Assembly (NCBI GenBank): GCA_965207805.1
Contig: OZ242312.1
Span: 1,068,748 to 1,132,747 of the forward strand
Source: Gemmatimonadota bacterium
Lineage (GTDB): Bacteria; Gemmatimonadota; Gemmatimonadetes; Palauibacterales; Palauibacteraceae
Reading direction: 5' to 3'
DNA: 64,000 nt
In this document: one piece after another, positions 58,443 through 64,000 of the stretch
Numbering within the stretch: the stretch's first letter is position 1
How the letters are laid out: each line of letters opens with the position of its first letter
Notes under the pieces: model-generated
What the model saw: the letters and a program-made list of their open reading frames with translations, nothing else
What the model was told of the DNA's origin: nothing
The model's database searches: none
Made by a program: the position numbers and the translations under genes

Positions 58443-59875
58443 CCTCTCTCGACCTCGCGATCCTCGTCGTCTACCTCGGCGGGATCACCGCCTGGGGAGC
58501 GTGGCTCGGCAGGGGCGCGCGCGGGGGCGAGGAGTATTTTCTGGGCCGGCGCGACCTGCCGTGGGTCGTCGTCCTCCTGTCCGTCGTGGCGACGGAAACG
58601 AGCACGCTCACCTTCCTCTCGATCCCCGGCATCGCGTACGGAGGGTCGCTCGCCTTCGTGCAGATCGCGGCGGGCTACGTGCTCGGACGGATCGCCGTCG
58701 CCGCCTGGCTGCTGCCGGCGTATCGCGAGGGGCGGCTGCGGACGGCCTACGAACTGCTGGAGGCCCGTTTCGGGACGGAGACCCGACGGCTGACCTCCGG
58801 CATCTTCATGATCACGCGCCTCCTCGCGGATTCCGTGCGGCTCTTCGCGACGGCGATTCCGCTCACGCTCGTCACGGGGTGGCCGCTCATCGCCTCCGTG
58901 CTCGTGATCGGGGCCGTCACCTTCATCTATACCTTCATCGGCGGCATCCGCGCGGTCGTCTGGGTCGACGCCTCGCAGATGGCGCTCTACCTGGCCGGCG
59001 GGCTCATCGCGCTCGTCGTCCTCGGCGGCGCCGTGCCCGGCGGATGGCCCGAGATCCTCGCCCGCGCCGGGGAGGCCGGGAAGCTCACCGTCATCGACCC
59101 GTCGCTCGACTTCGGGCGACCCTACACGCTGTGGGCCGGACTCCTCGGCGGCGCCTTCCTCTCCATGGGTTCGCACGGCGCGGACCAGCTCATCGTCCAG
59201 CGCCTTCTCGCCTGCCGCGACCTCGCCGCGAGCCGCCGCGCCCTCGTCGGCAGCGGCTTCGCCGTCCTCCTCCAGTTCACCCTTTTCCTCTTCGTTGGCT
59301 TGGGCCTCTGGGCGTGGTACGACGGAGCCGCCTTCGTGCGCGCCGACGAGATCTTCGCCGGGTTCATCGTTGAAGCGCTCCCGGCCGGCGTCCGCGGCCT
59401 GCTCATCGCGGGCGTGTTCGCGGCCGCCATGTCTACGCTCTCCAGTTCGATCAACGCGCTCTCATCGGCGGCGGCCTACGACTTCTGGGCGGCGTCCCGT
59501 CCGGAGGCGGACGAGCGGCGGATCCTGCGCGTAGGGCGGATCTGGGCCGTGGTGTGGACGGCCCTGCTCGTGGCGGCGGCGATAGGGTTCATCCCCCTGA
59601 GCGAGGAGAGCACCGCGGTGGAGGTGTCGCTGGGGATCGCGTCGCTCGTCTACGGCGGGCTGCTGGGCGCGTTCGCGCTCGCCCGCTTCTCGCGCCGGGC
59701 CACGAGCCGCTCGACCCGGCTCGGGATCGTGTTCGGGATCGGATCCGTCACCGCGATATGGATCGGGGCGCGGGCCGCGGTCGCCTGGCCGTGGTTCGTC
59801 CTCATCGGCACGGCGGTCACGGTGGCGGTCGGCCTCCTCGCCGGCTCCCGCCGCGGTTCGCCCGCGTCGGAATGA
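58439..59875 (+). CDS. Sodium:solute symporter (SSS) family transporter
   Basis: Typical SSS N-terminus (LDLAILVVYLGGITAWGAWLGRG...EEYFLGRRDLPWVVVLLSVVATETSTLTFLSIPG) is encoded upstream of the first canonical start (GTG 58586). The only in-frame candidate is CTG 58439, overlapping the upstream TGA (cTGA). 12-13 TM predicted. Confidence 0.65.
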   Translation: MTSLDLAILVVYLGGITAWGAWLGRGARGGEEYFLGRRDLPWVVVLLSVVATETSTLTFLSIPGIAYGGSLAFVQIAAGYVLGRIAVAAWLLPAYREGRLRTAYELLEARFGTETRRLTSGIFMITRLLADSVRLFATAIPLTLVTGWPLIASVLVIGAVTFIYTFIGGIRAVVWVDASQMALYLAGGLIALVVLGGAVPGGWPEILARAGEAGKLTVIDPSLDFGRPYTLWAGLLGGAFLSMGSHGADQLIVQRLLACRDLAASRRALVGSGFAVLLQFTLFLFVGLGLWAWYDGAAFVRADEIFAGFIVEALPAGVRGLLIAGVFAAAMSTLSSSINALSSAAAYDFWAASRPEADERRILRVGRIWAVVWTALLVAAAIGFIPLSEESTAVEVSLGIASLVYGGLLGAFALARFSRRATSRSTRLGIVFGIGSVTAIWIGARAAVAWPWFVLIGTAVTVAVGLLAGSRRGSPASE

Positions 59876-62220
59876 AGTCGCGGGAAGTCGCGGGGATGAG
59901 GTCGCGGCGGGCGAAGTCGCGGGGAGCACGCCTGCTGGCGGCGACCGCCGTCCTCTGGGCCGCCGCCTGCGGCGATGGGGAGCCGGACGTCATGGGACCC
60001 GCCCCCGTGCCGAATCGCGCGCCGGAGGCGGTGGGGACGATCCCCGGGCGGACGCTGCCCGTCGGCGAGGCGGCGACGGTGGACGTGTCGGCCCACTTCC
60101 GCGACCCCGATGGCGACGCCCTTTCCTTCACGGCGGCATCGTCGAACGCGGATTTCGTCGGCGTTTCCCTGTCCGGCAGTACCGTCACCATCACCGCCGC
60201 CGCCCGGGGCGTGGCCACGATCACGGTGACCGCCAGCGATCCACGGGGTCTCGCCGCCCAGCAGCGCTTCGAGGTCACGGTGCCGAACCGGGCGCCCGAG
60301 GCCGGGGACGCGATCCCGGCGCAGACCCTGTTCGTCGGCGAGACGGCAACCGTGGACGCGTCCGCCCACTTCGGAGACCCGGACGGCGACGCGCTCACCT
60401 ACGCGGCGACCTCGTCGAACGCCGAGATCGCGACAGTCACGGTCTCCGGGGCCACGCTGACGATCCAGGCCATCGCCGCCGGCGCCGCGACGGTCACCGT
60501 GACCGCGAGCGATCCCGACGGCGCCGGGGCGGAGCAGCGCTTCGAGGTGACGGTGCCGAACCGCGAGCCGGAGGCCATCGGGACGTTGCCCCCGCGGACG
60601 CTCGCAGTGGGCGAGACGGAATCCGTCGTCGTGTCCGCGTTCTTCCGCGACCCGGACGGAGACTCGCTCGCCTACACGGCGGCCTCGTCGAATGCCGAGG
60701 TCGCCACCGTCTCCGTGTCGGGCGACTCGGTGGCGGTCACGGCGCTCGCGAAGGGCCTGGCGACGATCACCGTGACGGCCACCGACGGAGAAGGCCTGGC
60801 CGCGGAGCAGCGCTTCGAAGTCACGGTGCCGAACCGCGCGCCCGAGGCCGTCGGGACGCCGCCGCATCGGACGCTCGAGGTGGGCAAGACGGCATCCGTG
60901 GTCGTGTCCCCGTTCTTTGGCGACCCGGACGGAGACGCCCTCACCTACGCGGCGGCCTCGTCCAATGCCGAGATCGCCGCCGTCGCCGTGTCGGGCGACT
61001 CGGTGGCGGTCACGGCGGTCGCGAAGGGCCTGGCGACGATCACGGTGACGGCCCGCGACGAAGAGGGCCTGGCCGCGGAGGTGCGCTTCGAGGTCACGGT
61101 GCCGAACCGCGCCCCGGAGACCGGGGACGCCATCCCGGCCCAAACGCTGTTCGAGGGCGACACGGCATCCGTGGACGCGTCCGCCCACTTTCGGGACCCG
61201 GACGGCGACCCGCTCACCTACGCGGCCAACTCGTCCAGTCCCGATGTCGCGACGGTCGAGGTCTCCGGCGATACGCTGACGATCCGCGCGGCCGCCGCGG
61301 GCGTCGCGCTGGTGACGGTGACCGCGACCGATCCGGAGGAGGCCGCCGTCGCCACATCGTTCTCGGTGACCGTCGTGCCTCCCGCGACCCCATTCGAGAT
61401 CGAACTCGTGTTCGCGTCGTCCATGACCCGGGCGCAGGAGGCCGCGTTCCAACGGGCGGCGGAGCGTTGGATGGCGATCCTGGCGCCGACGGACCTCCCC
61501 GACGTGCGGCTGAACCGGACGCTGGGCTGCCCGGGCGATCCGTTCGAGCAGCATGTCGACACGGTCGACGACCTGATGATCGTGGTCTCGGTGGCCGAAA
61601 TCGACGGTCCGCTCGGGACCCTGGGACGCGCCGGGCCCTGCTGGGTCCGGACCGCGACATCGCTGCCCCTCTACGGCCGGATCCTGATGGACGCCGCCGA
61701 CCTCGACCGGCTCGAGACCCGCGACCTGGAGGAGGTGATCCTGCACGAAATGGGGCATGTGCTCGGCATCGGCCTCATCTGGGATCGTCTCGACCTGCTC
61801 CGGAACCCCGCCTCGGCAACGTCGACACCGGACACGCACTTCGCGGGCCCGCTGGCCATCGCGGCGTTCGACGAGGCGGGCGGCACGGGCTACCCCGGCG
61901 CCAAGGTGCCCGTGCACAACGAGGACGGTCAGGGATCGCGGAACAGCCACTGGAGGGAAGCCGTCTTGACGCTGGAACTCATGACCCCGTTCCAGCACCT
62001 CGGGGTGGCCGACCCGCTGAGCGCGATCACCATCCAGTCGCTCGCGGATCTCGGCTACGAAGTCGACCCGACACTGGCCGACCCCTTCCGGCTGCCGGGC
62101 GCGGACCTCGCGCGCGCCATCGAGGCCGCGCCCAGAATCCCCTACGGCGACGACATCTGGACCGGCCCCCTGATCTTCGTCGACCCCAACGGCCGCATCA
62201 CCCGCGTGATCCCCAGGTAA
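59872..62220 (+). CDS. Surface lipoprotein: 5 tandem Ig-like (He_PIG/cadherin-like) repeats + C-terminal leishmanolysin-like (M8) zinc metallopeptidase domain
   Basis: ATG overlapping the SSS stop (ATGA). Lipobox ...LWAAACGDG. Five 91-aa repeats each containing DPDGDxL(T/S)(Y/F). C-terminal HEMGHVLGIG (HExxH) plus ...SHWREAVLTLELMTP matching the M8 third-His/Met-turn region. Confidence 0.75.
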   Translation: MKSREVAGMRSRRAKSRGARLLAATAVLWAAACGDGEPDVMGPAPVPNRAPEAVGTIPGRTLPVGEAATVDVSAHFRDPDGDALSFTAASSNADFVGVSLSGSTVTITAAARGVATITVTASDPRGLAAQQRFEVTVPNRAPEAGDAIPAQTLFVGETATVDASAHFGDPDGDALTYAATSSNAEIATVTVSGATLTIQAIAAGAATVTVTASDPDGAGAEQRFEVTVPNREPEAIGTLPPRTLAVGETESVVVSAFFRDPDGDSLAYTAASSNAEVATVSVSGDSVAVTALAKGLATITVTATDGEGLAAEQRFEVTVPNRAPEAVGTPPHRTLEVGKTASVVVSPFFGDPDGDALTYAAASSNAEIAAVAVSGDSVAVTAVAKGLATITVTARDEEGLAAEVRFEVTVPNRAPETGDAIPAQTLFEGDTASVDASAHFRDPDGDPLTYAANSSSPDVATVEVSGDTLTIRAAAAGVALVTVTATDPEEAAVATSFSVTVVPPATPFEIELVFASSMTRAQEAAFQRAAERWMAILAPTDLPDVRLNRTLGCPGDPFEQHVDTVDDLMIVVSVAEIDGPLGTLGRAGPCWVRTATSLPLYGRILMDAADLDRLETRDLEEVILHEMGHVLGIGLIWDRLDLLRNPASATSTPDTHFAGPLAIAAFDEAGGTGYPGAKVPVHNEDGQGSRNSHWREAVLTLELMTPFQHLGVADPLSAITIQSLADLGYEVDPTLADPFRLPGADLARAIEAAPRIPYGDDIWTGPLIFVDPNGRITRVIPR
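60004..61371 (+). repeat. Five tandem 273-nt (91-aa) coding repeats inside the lipoprotein gene; copies 3 and 4 are ~90% identical at the DNA level
   Basis: Repeat units begin with ccgaaYcgNgNgccNgag (PNRAPEA/PNREPEA) at about 60004, 60277, 60550, 60823, 61096. Long exact stretches are shared between units 3 and 4 (gtgtcgggcgactcggtggcggtcacggcg; tcgcgaagggcctggcgacgatcac). Confidence 0.8.
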
Positions 62221-62236
62221 GAGGACGACGCCGGCG

Positions 62237-62707
62237 TCAGGAAGGGTCCGGCTTGCCGAACCCGTGTACCACTGTCTCGGAGAGGGTGGCGAACTGCGCG
62301 GCGGCCTCCGTGGCCATCGAGTCGAGTCGCGCCTCGAACCCATCCATCCGCGCGTTGACGTTCTCATGCAGACGGACGACGTGCTCGCGGACATCGGCGT
62401 GGCCAACCCGCAGTTTGGACATCTCGTCGGCGAGAGCGACGAACCGGCCCTCCCACTTCACGTCCAGCGCTCCGAAGCGGTTGCCGATGGCCTCGAAACG
62501 AAGGTCCATCTGCTTGAAGCGGCGATCCACCGCCTCGAAGCGGTTGTCGAAAGCCTCGAAGCGGCGGTCGATGGCTTCAAAGCGGCGGTCGATGGCCTCG
62601 AAGCGCGGCTCGAGCGCCCGCACGATGGTGGCCGCCAGGGCGGCGTCGCGCCCGTTACGTGTGAATCTGCGGATCAACGATGTCCTCCTCGCACCCGGGA
62701 GTTGCAT
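62237..62707 (-). CDS. Small coiled-coil protein with seven tandem heptads (RFEAIDR-like), hypothetical
   Basis: EPRFEAIDRRFEAIDRRFEAFDNRFEAVDRRFKQMDLRFEAIGNRFGALDVKWEG...; 21-nt periodicity at the DNA level; no signal peptide; 156 aa. Confidence 0.55.
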   Translation of the reverse strand: MQLPGARRTSLIRRFTRNGRDAALAATIVRALEPRFEAIDRRFEAIDRRFEAFDNRFEAVDRRFKQMDLRFEAIGNRFGALDVKWEGRFVALADEMSKLRVGHADVREHVVRLHENVNARMDGFEARLDSMATEAAAQFATLSETVVHGFGKPDPS

Positions 62708-62743
62708 GACGCCCGAAACATGCCCGGCGCCATCAACGGGCCA

Positions 62744-63064
62744 TCAACCGGATGCCGCTCCCCGCTGGTCGCCACGGTCGGCGGCCGGAGCGCCGGCCGG
62801 CTCGCCCCGCCGGAGCGCGGCGACCTCCCTGGTCAACTCGTACAGCTTCCTGTTCAGCCGGAACAGTTGGTCCTGTACGTATTCGTGCAGATTGAGGACC
62901 TCCCACCGCACGGCGACCACGTCGTTGCGCAGTTCGCCGTTCCTGAGCCCCGAGTCCAGGTTCATCCTTTCGAGCTTGCGGTCGAGCGCGTCGAACTTCG
63001 ACTCCAACCCCTTCGCGGCCGTCGTGCCGCTTGCCTCTTCGTGTAAATCGCTGGTGGTCAACAA
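62744..63064 (-). CDS. Small coiled-coil protein, paralog of the downstream heptad-repeat protein, hypothetical
   Basis: ...SKFDALDRKLERMNLDSGLRNGELRNDVVAVRWEVLNLHEYV... parallels ...RFEAIGNRFGALDVKWEGRFVALADEM... in the neighbour (shared (R/K)F(D/E)A(L/I)D..., (K/R)WE + coiled coil). 106 aa. Confidence 0.5.
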   Translation of the reverse strand: MLTTSDLHEEASGTTAAKGLESKFDALDRKLERMNLDSGLRNGELRNDVVAVRWEVLNLHEYVQDQLFRLNRKLYELTREVAALRRGEPAGAPAADRGDQRGAASG

Positions 63065-63218
63065 TTATCCCCCCATCCCCCGGGTAACGTCTGTTCCGCC
63101 CGGCGGCCTCTCGCTTCGCCGACGGCCCGCCTCACCAACGTAGCCGGTCCGGCCCTCGGGCGCGCACCGCACCCGCAAGCTGGCGCGGGGGCGGCGGGCG
63201 CGTCTACGATCCCCGGCT

Positions 63219-64000
63219 ATGGAAGACTCGAACGCTCTCATCGTGCGGGGGGCGCGGGAGCACAACCTCCGCGACGTCGACGTCGAACTGCCGCGCGACC
63301 GGCTCATCGTCGTCACCGGGCTCTCCGGCTCCGGCAAGTCCTCGCTCGCCTTCGACACCATCTACGCGGAGGGGCAGCGCCGCTACGTCGAATCCCTCTC
63401 CGCCTACGCCCGGCAGTTCCTCGGCGTCATGGAGAAGCCCGACGTCGACGTCATCGAGGGACTCTCGCCCGCCATCGCGATCGAGCAGCGCACCGCGGGC
63501 GGCAACCCCCGCTCCACCGTCGGCACCGTCACCGAGATCTACGACTACCTCCGGCTCCTGTGGGCCCGCGCCGGCACCCCCCACTGTCCCTCGTGCGGCA
63601 GCCCCGTGCGCCCGCAGTCCCCGTCGGAGATCGCGCAGCAGATTCTCGGCTGGCCCGCCGGTGCCCGCATCGAGGTCCGAGCCCCGCTCGTCAGGGGACG
63701 GAAGGGGGAGTTCCGCGACCTGTTCGAGCGCACGCTCAGTGAAGGCTTCGTGCGCGCGCGCGTGGACGGCGAACTCATCGACCTCTCCGACCCGCCCCTC
63801 CTGAACCGGCGCCGCAACCACGACATCTCCGTCGTCGTGGACCGGCTCCTCGTGCGCGCCTCCGACCGCGAGCGGCTGGCCGACTCCGTGGCGACCGCCC
63901 TCCGCATGGCCGACGGCGTCGTCGAGGTCGCCCTCCACACGGGCGACGGGGAGGCCACCGAGGGGGGGGCGAACGGAAAAAGGGAGACGCGGCACCTGTT
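63219..64000 (+). CDS. uvrA: Excinuclease ABC subunit A (UvrA), N-terminal fragment; continues past the window end
   Basis: ...[63 protein letters not shown]... (Walker A, ABC signature region, Zn-finger CPSCG). Confidence 0.92.

Follow-up and report, generated by a model that had tools for sequence, protein, structure and literature searches.

DUF3782 has been described as forming the coiled-coil stalk at the N-terminus of PD-(D/E)XK endonucleases, stand-alone bacterial relatives of the domain exist, and the coiled-coil structures solved in the same study are trimeric (PMC4786415, Hartmann et al. 2016). In designed peptides, a further point of comparison is the Phe-Ile zipper, or ACC-Hex, concept (PMC11898069). 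Here we analyze a small minus-strand gene (the repeat gene), together with an adjoining smaller coiled-coil gene (the upstream gene), that lies beside uvrA in a 64,000-nucleotide (nt) stretch of DNA, hereafter the window (contig OZ242312.1, positions 1,068,748 to 1,132,747 of the forward strand; assembly GCA_965207805.1). The source is a Gemmatimonadota bacterium of the Palauibacterales, a marine order associated with sponges and corals (PMC10469786); named database matches place it with Candidatus Palauibacter or relatives of that genus. The product of the repeat gene is a lineage-specific soluble variant on a widespread, uncharacterized heptad-array module, and we propose that it may serve as a length-adjustable coiled-coil spacer. 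Related loci and proteins are numbered with L and P, respectively. The features of the gene pair are as follows.

62237–62677, minus strand: repeat coiled-coil gene, 146 amino acids (aa) from a TTG start, plus stop
62606–62677, minus strand: N-terminal head, residues 1–24, MIRRFTRNGRDAALAATIVRALEP (conserved columns)
62459–62605, minus strand: seven-heptad array, 7 × 21 nt, residues 25–73 (sequence and Tandem Repeats Finder [TRF])
62447–62458, minus strand: KWEG, the 4-residue stutter that closes the array (invariant D72, K74, W75, E76 and F79)
62294–62446, minus strand: C-terminal coiled-coil segment, residues 78–128, heptads with stutters (AlphaFold2 [AF2] helix and core spacing)
62258–62293, minus strand: C-terminal hydrophobic motif FATLSETVVHGF, residues 129–140 (conserved columns)
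62684–62689, minus strand: Shine-Dalgarno-like AGGAGG for the TTG of the repeat gene (read from sequence)
62744–63064, minus strand: upstream small coiled-coil gene, 106 aa, TTG start

A heptad array within a single predicted helix

The array runs RFEAIDR, RFEAIDR, RFEAFDN, RFEAVDR, RFKQMDL, RFEAIGN, RFGALDV and then KWEG, giving seven exact 7-residue units, and TRF reported a 21-nt period at 62473–62613 (6.7 copies, 71% matches, score 119). In DNA the units, although in phase, are not identical (two synonymous changes separate unit 1 from unit 2), and the F-to-F spacing of +7, which occurs six times, was reached by 8 of 100,000 residue shuffles. An earlier note on this DNA had described seven consecutive in-phase 7-aa units over a 21-nt DNA repeat, and these values bear it out. 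The register of the array places R at g, F at a, E at b, A at c, I (also F, V, M or L) at d, D at e and R at f. We treat RF(D/E)A(I/L/M)D(R/K) heptad-array proteins as an informal class, defined here by at least three in-phase heptads with R or K at g, F at a, an aliphatic residue at d and an acidic residue at e; the repeat protein has seven such units.

After the array, the tryptophan of KWEG lies in the core and the core resumes four residues on (+4) with F, so that the core spacing of 71-75-79-82 marks a stutter. The hydrophobic core follows a 3/4 pattern with stutters from positions 26, 29, 33 and 36 through to position 140, and AF2 modeled one helix over residues 2–137 (predicted local distance difference test [pLDDT] score of 65). 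By the AF2 model and the core positions the repeat protein is thus a coiled coil, with a continuous alpha-helix and 3/4 a/d spacing, and it is coiled coil throughout between the head and the C-terminal motif. In 14–17 orthologues, the head (MLIRKFTRNGRDEALAAAVVRALEP) has T6, R7, N8, R10, D11, A13, A16, A17, V19, A21, L22, E23 and P24 invariant or nearly so, while its codons differ synonymously between loci, and the C-terminal motif FAALSxTVVHGF is likewise invariant or nearly so at F129, A130, L132, S133, T135, V136, V137, H138 and G139. The maximum Kyte-Doolittle hydropathy over 19 residues was 0.66 for the repeat protein and 0.17 for the upstream protein, in agreement with the earlier observation that neither has a signal peptide or transmembrane (TM) segment. 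A Tat or Sec signal at the N-terminus (IRRF/IRKF) was considered and rejected on the misfit to RRxFLK, the acidic residues in the would-be h-region and the low hydropathy.

Both open reading frames (ORFs) lie on the minus strand within 62237–63064, as first annotated. The size of 156 aa originally given for the repeat protein is that of the ORF from the ATG at 62707 (62237–62707, minus strand); however, translation probably begins with the TTG at 62677 to give a product of 146 aa, because orthologue conservation starts at (M)LIRKF (the 10 extra residues from the ATG are non-conserved), AGGAGG lies 6 nt 5' of the TTG, and the public gene call P0001, with 99% identity to the repeat protein, is 146 aa. 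An equivalent GGGAGGG stands ahead of the TTG in relatives.

Length variation, allelic forms and evolutionary rate

The array, measured from ALEP to the last KWE, was composed of whole heptads (1–10) plus 4-residue KWER units in 18 of 18 orthologues, with extra internal KWER units present in some relatives. C-terminal segments in the same orthologues are 55, 62, 66, 69 or 73 residues long, with steps of 7, 4 or 11. Since lengths change by whole heptads and stutters, each insertion or deletion (indel) keeps the coiled-coil register. Between orthologues, the last three array units and the KWER that closes the array keep stable, corresponding positions. Recent unit duplication is indicated in L001, L006, L009 and L010, where neighboring 21-nt units are identical. 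The earlier note had suggested that the tandem repeat might slip to change repeat number, and that this be checked in related assemblies. Repeat number does differ between relatives (1–10 heptads), and the identical neighboring units fit such a process; however, three sequences nearly identical to that of the window all encode 146 aa, so the variation is evolutionary and gives no demonstration of rapid phase variation.

Orthologous rods range in length from 61 to 184 aa. The shortest, P0134, lies between uvrA and the lipoprotein gene on eight contigs and retains the head, approximately two heptads and the C-terminal motif; AF2 modeled it as one helix over residues 2–55 (pLDDT 78) with no hairpin. 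A search with this 61-aa allele to trace the termini gave three matches only, with the word index limiting the candidates. Another form, P0028 (125 aa), occupies the orthologous locus L027 (504–881), after the upstream gene and matching intergenic sequence. It keeps the same head and array, with the C-terminal half swapped for a TM tail anchor (hydropathy over 19 residues of 1.89) and a Pro-rich tail. Ratios of nonsynonymous to synonymous substitution rates (dN/dS) against the window were 0.5–0.7 for the repeat gene, 0.6–1.2 for the upstream gene (0.5–0.6 in close pairs) and 0.10–0.18 for uvrA. Both small genes thus evolve fast, the upstream one almost neutrally.

The upstream protein has one KFDALDR unit and a Pro/Ala/Gly-rich tail. 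In its six orthologues (42–82% identity) one FDA-DRKL unit is invariant, and all share the Pro/Ala/Gly-rich tail and a further coiled-coil segment; homologues were found as P0121–P0123 and at loci L001, L006, L009, L017 and L027. Profile-profile alignment of the upstream and repeat families with hhalign gave 96% probability (E = 1.8 × 10−9) across 50 C-terminal coiled-coil columns, a score of a kind that coiled-coil periodicity may inflate, and one (R/K)FDA(L/I)DR unit is common to both proteins. BLASTP, on the other hand, gave E = 2 × 10−4 only. The paralogy that the earlier note took as given is therefore not certain, although it is plausible, on these alignments, that the upstream gene is a diverged tandem-duplicate paralogue of the repeat gene. 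The upstream gene is missing from 5 of 11 related loci (L005, L007, L008, L010 and L024), and the pair is consequently not obligate. Apparent last codons of the upstream gene remain beside the 5' flank in L007, L008, L010 and L024, which points to its loss there.

A widespread array module and the proposed spacer role

The earlier note had suggested that RFEAIDR-type arrays be sought in other genomes. A full-length search returned 1,079 proteins at E ≤ 0.001, matching via the array; Acidobacteria, Clostridia, Dissulfurispira and a Candidatus Freyarchaeota archaeon are among the sources with a name. Use as a membrane-anchored stalk predominates: among the best 120 of the 1,079 matches, 65 have a membrane segment of any kind, which is a C-terminal TM segment directly after the array (tail-anchored) in 51, an N-terminal signal peptide or TM segment together with a C-terminal TM segment in 9, and an N-terminal TM segment or signal peptide only in 5. 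In P0088, P0108 and P0116 the array is fused to DUF3782 and a PDDEXK_10 nuclease. Many RFEAIDR-array proteins are misnamed in JGI (e.g., P0024, P0035, P0044, P0061 and P0092), where “chromosome segregation ATPase,” “tetrahydromethanopterin S-methyltransferase subunit G,” “SlyX” and “prefoldin” represent generic coiled-coil COG assignments.

The array is thus widely distributed, whereas an exhaustive HMMER search with residues 71–146 against 1.84 billion representatives gave seven matches, all of them orthologues, fragments or generic repeats; as far as sequence comparison goes, the C-terminal half of the repeat protein is lineage-specific. The family had not been recognized by the earlier note, and matches in Pfam, NCBIfam, PADLOC and PDB all stayed below threshold. 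DUF3782 (PF12644) matched residues 43–80 with 19.5 bits (E = 0.0011; gathering cutoff 24.4), and DUF7310 (PF23991) matched the window protein with 18.4 bits and the orthologue P0006 with 21.6 bits (cutoff 40). NCBIfam gave sub-threshold matches only for the window proteins, PADLOC gave zero families for both at E ≤ 1, PHROGs gave weak matches to families of unknown function only, and the PDB sequence search gave only designed peptides, tropomyosin and HA2 (E ≥ 0.02). Foldseek with the AF2 model, also proposed by the earlier note, gave no matches, as expected for a single helix; tblastn against phage and plasmid sequences found hypothetical proteins only, with a single hypothetical-protein match in the phage database. 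A literature search on the motif and the Pfam accessions found nothing beyond PMC4786415. Two of the roles first put forward, a phasin-like coat and an anti-sigma-like pair, found no evidence: no phasin family was among the matches (Apolipoprotein was sub-threshold at 14.4 bits against 90, and NCBIfam gave nothing), no anti-sigma domain was found, and the neighbors, uvrA and the lipoprotein gene, include no sigma factor. XhlA haemolysin (PF10779), which the earlier note gave as an example of a characterized family, had no match at E ≤ 10 for either window protein, and neither has a TM segment.

The likeness to DUF3782 lies in the long repetitive coiled coil of near-perfect short repeats and in the existence of nuclease-free members (Thermosinus Tcar0761, PDB 5APZ); the 146-aa protein has no PD-(D/E)XK nuclease domain. 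The repeat protein differs, however, in using heptads and 4-residue stutters where 5APZ has nonad beta-layers (MATKDDIAN), and its termini are unrelated. The array relatives P0011 (40.5 bits) and P0015 (45.2 bits) reach the cutoff of DUF7310, a “coiled-coil region of unknown function,” and precomputed listings show DUF7310 for most of the best 120 array matches and PF27742 (“CTXL_M”) for many; as DUF7310 is without an assigned function, membership would explain nothing. The best PDB sequence match, at E = 0.02, was 5vte, a de novo peptide (…KFEAIAKKFEAIA…) of the Phe-Ile zipper/ACC-Hex line that has the local sequence FEAI in common with the array and an identical core, F at a with I at d. Designed peptides of the ACC-Hex type are approximately 30 residues long with Ala at e, whereas the Asp at e and Arg at g of the natural array favor a parallel arrangement, and there is no evolutionary relationship between the two. 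Proteins of the DUF1640/CCDC90-like/MCUR1 type, in which a coiled-coil stalk links a small head to a C-terminal TM segment, resemble the 51 tail-anchored array proteins among the best 120 as well as P0028, and P0110 is named a DUF1640 protein by UniRef. The window protein, in contrast, has no TM segment and no Pfam CCDC90-like match, and its head is unrelated. Lpp, the YscP/FliK rulers and GvpC are length-setting repeat proteins. By analogy only, they too have conserved ends around a repeat region with strain-variable copy number; they show no sequence similarity to the repeat protein, for which there is no known structure whose dimension it could set, and a strict ruler function is countered by the 61-aa allele with its almost absent rod.

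We propose, with moderate confidence, that the repeat protein forms a parallel oligomeric coiled-coil rod, a spacer of adjustable length that separates a presented head from an anchoring end and probably lies close to the membrane. Such a spacer would fit the conserved ends, the in-phase rod that can be resized, the allele with a TM anchor and the predominance of tail-anchored proteins in the array class. The protein would be cytoplasmic, one continuous alpha-helix of about 135 residues (∼20 nm), assembled into an in-register parallel bundle through a “Phe-Ile zipper” core with Phe at a and Ile, Met, Val or Leu at d. A parallel in-register arrangement is suggested because Arg at g and Asp at e attract one another (g-e') only there, whereas an antiparallel one sets R against R and D against D. 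Three or four strands seem most likely, by analogy with designs having Leu at a and Ile at d and with the trimers of the DUF3782 study. Gain or loss of 21-nt units (33 nt with a KWER stutter) would resize the rod by about 1 nm per heptad with the register intact. The selected parts would then be the two ends, namely the basic head (FTRNGRD...ALEP) as the presented end and the hydrophobic C-terminal motif (FAALSxTVVHGF) as the anchoring or partner-binding end. The C-terminal assignment of the anchor is favored because P0028 swaps in a TM tail anchor there and most array proteins elsewhere are tail-anchored. The upstream gene, probably a degenerate tandem paralogue, is dispensable, although its product may co-assemble.

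Several observations weigh against the spacer proposal. AF2 confidence for the repeat protein is only moderate, and oligomer state and orientation are read from residue patterns alone; de novo Phe-Ile zippers form antiparallel hexamers, not parallel bundles (but with Ala at e). The C-terminal motif of the soluble form is too short to span a membrane, and the TM allele P0028 is one 917-nt contig at approximately 2.7× coverage, reported in three samples. No conserved partner gene was found, and the three distant array members whose neighborhoods were compared (L011–L016) share no gene context. The dN/dS of the repeat gene relative to that of uvrA shows weak constraint, and since the rod can shrink to about two heptads, a precise ruler function is unlikely to be essential.

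If the proposal is correct, the locus would provide a clean natural case of register-preserving coiled-coil length evolution (18 of 18 orthologues) and a natural counterpart of the designed Phe-Ile zipper, and it would tie a DUF3782/DUF7310-like module to a stalk or spacer role in tail-anchored proteins and nucleases. It would be of use to coiled-coil biophysicists and protein designers, and for the re-annotation of hundreds of proteins misnamed “chromosome segregation ATPase,” “SlyX” or “MtrG”; it opens no new biological system and resolves no long-standing question. A broader version, which we find rather improbable, would have the array as an evolutionarily tunable Phe-Ile zipper stalk, the locus sampling about 2 to about 22 heptads and swapping soluble for TM anchors, with expression perhaps co-regulated with uvrA through the direct-repeat operator candidate described below. 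In that case the gene would encode a tether of adjustable length holding its conserved head at a chosen distance from a membrane or partner, and the module, present in over 1,000 proteins of Bacteria and Archaea, would define a kind of modular, aromatic-core spacer that has not been studied before.

Genomic neighborhood and alternative explanations

Three further features of the window are as follows.

63219–64000, plus strand: 5' part of uvrA, divergent neighbor (UvrA_inter domain, E = 1.4 × 10−34)
62732–62748, minus strand: direct repeat GTTGAT-N5-GTTGAT, candidate regulatory site, overlapping the stop codon of the upstream gene and ∼55–70 nt 5' of the repeat gene
59872–62220, plus strand: repeat lipoprotein gene, convergent (Ig-like domains, M8-peptidase-like C-terminus)

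The earlier note had the layout right: the lipoprotein ORF ends at 62220 and converges on the gene pair, and uvrA starts at 63219 and diverges from it. The repeat gene was found in at least 12 loci with the order uvrA, (upstream gene), repeat gene, (variable cargo), M8-like Ig-repeat lipoprotein gene and SSF symporter gene; uvrA adjacency is retained across all related loci, and L017 was the sole orthologous locus added by a metagenome scan. A scan for a sigma-70 consensus promoter or an intrinsic terminator found none, and an Rfam search gave no relevant match.

This conserved adjacency raises an alternative, which we consider unlikely, in which the repeat protein is an accessory of the DNA damage (SOS) response co-regulated with uvrA through a shared divergent control region, with the direct repeat as operator. 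Alphaproteobacteria have a direct-repeat LexA box, GTTC-N7-GTTC, with an 11-bp period, and the element here might by analogy be a site of that kind. The repeat gene stands head-to-head with uvrA at every related locus, including the most divergent (L005, 51% protein identity), and some PD-(D/E)XK nucleases of other organisms carry the array as a fusion. No other intergenic element is conserved as well as the direct repeat, whose exact match is unique in the window; it is exact in seven related loci and close to exact in others, L005 with no upstream gene included, with equivalent sites in L005, L008, L009, L017 and L024–L026, and in most relatives it is followed by a conserved block, GGCGCCGGGCATGGTTATGGCGTCACGCAA. 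It is a candidate operator or promoter element. However, uvrA adjacency is documented within one order only and may be inherited synteny, and in the window the upstream gene puts approximately 470 nt between the site and uvrA. The motif has no second exact copy in the 64 kb (relaxed matching gave 2 against 0.9 expected), a literature search for Gemmatimonadota LexA sites found none, and L007, in which the element is deleted, has the gene intact.

In the uvrA leader (63150–63221, plus strand), CGCGTCTACGATCCCCGGCT-ATG and a AAGCTGGCGCGG block are conserved across loci (L001 5375–5450, minus strand; L005 5859–5930, minus strand). A possible stem-loop near AAGCTGGCGCGG did not outperform shuffled sequences in folding in the window (z = 0.13) but did so in L005 (z = −2.3). 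Compared with the uvrA starts of L001, L007, L008, L009, L010 and L017, the N-terminal low-complexity extension of UvrA is variable (for example MEETRENANPTGADPTDGADPTDGAG... ahead of a conserved stretch in relatives) and almost absent in the window (63219–63240, plus strand).

The earlier note had also listed a cytoskeletal or scaffold filament among the possible roles. Under this explanation the conserved ends would polymerize rods head-to-tail, as in tropomyosin, with the upstream paralogue as copolymer or cap. The conserved ends around a variable rod, the wholly helical protein and the adjoining of two related coiled-coil genes would all suit a filament, but no known filament former was similar above threshold, rods vary from 61 to 184 aa with one allele anchored by a TM segment, and the partner gene is often absent. 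No evidence for this role was found, and we give a filament little credence.

The position between the repeat gene and the lipoprotein gene, which is empty in the window (62221–62236) and likewise without cargo in L010, L017 and L024, holds ATPase genes in other relatives. In L009 (6603–9662) it contains an AAA_21 ATPase paired with DUF4276, and also a PDC-M38A/AbiLi-like ATPase of full length (385 aa); L001 (6540–7295) and L006 (1286–2044) have an internally deleted 251-aa copy of the latter, and L005 (6493–7173) has a different AAA-type ATPase. The adjacent AAA_21 ATPase was considered as a partner of the repeat protein and rejected, being variably present, truncated or absent, and absent from the window. 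Because the repeat gene is present regardless of cargo, the slot is better seen as a neighboring integration hot spot than as a functional partner. The same observation counts against the explanation that the repeat protein is a component or target of phage-host conflict, evolving rapidly and varying in length beside a variable defense islet. The defense-type cargo, the high dN/dS relative to uvrA and the weak PHROGs matches to phage proteins of unknown function would agree with it, but neither protein matches PADLOC, the window has no ATPase, and the phage database yielded the single hypothetical-protein match mentioned above; we regard a role in conflict as very improbable.

GC contents at the three codon positions (0.71/0.43/0.86 in the repeat gene and 0.68/0.44/0.86 in the upstream gene) are the pattern of real genes in this genome, which together with at least 12 syntenic loci answers the earlier concern that these might be spurious ORFs. 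High-GC DNA is rich in long ORFs (with antisense ORFs of 260 and 558 aa here), and the dN/dS of the upstream gene nears 1 in distant comparisons, but a non-coding DNA repeat as the source of the periodicity is effectively refuted for the downstream repeat gene by conservation at the amino-acid level with synonymous change, indels that are all multiples of 3 and keep the heptad phase, a GC content of 0.86 at third and 0.43 at second codon positions, the Shine-Dalgarno sequence and the more than 1,000 proteins that carry the array. The antisense plus-strand ORFs (61467–63143, 558 aa, and 62264–63046, 260 aa) overlap both genes and are usual artifacts of high-GC DNA, for which the searches made returned no homologues; the repeat also yields a periodic peptide when read on the opposite strand.

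The convergent gene (59872–62220, plus strand) encodes a lipoprotein-like protein with the N-terminus ...LLAATAVLWAAACGDG. It has its own tandem repeat at 60007–61308 (a 273-nt unit in 4.8 copies), which encodes Big_9/Big_2 Ig-like domains, and its C-terminus carries an HEMGH metalloprotease motif of the M8-like type, with Peptidase_M8 matches in orthologues. L009 is without the M8-like lipoprotein gene. Orthologues of this protein range from 679 to 952 aa, and its domain copy number is thus also strain-variable.

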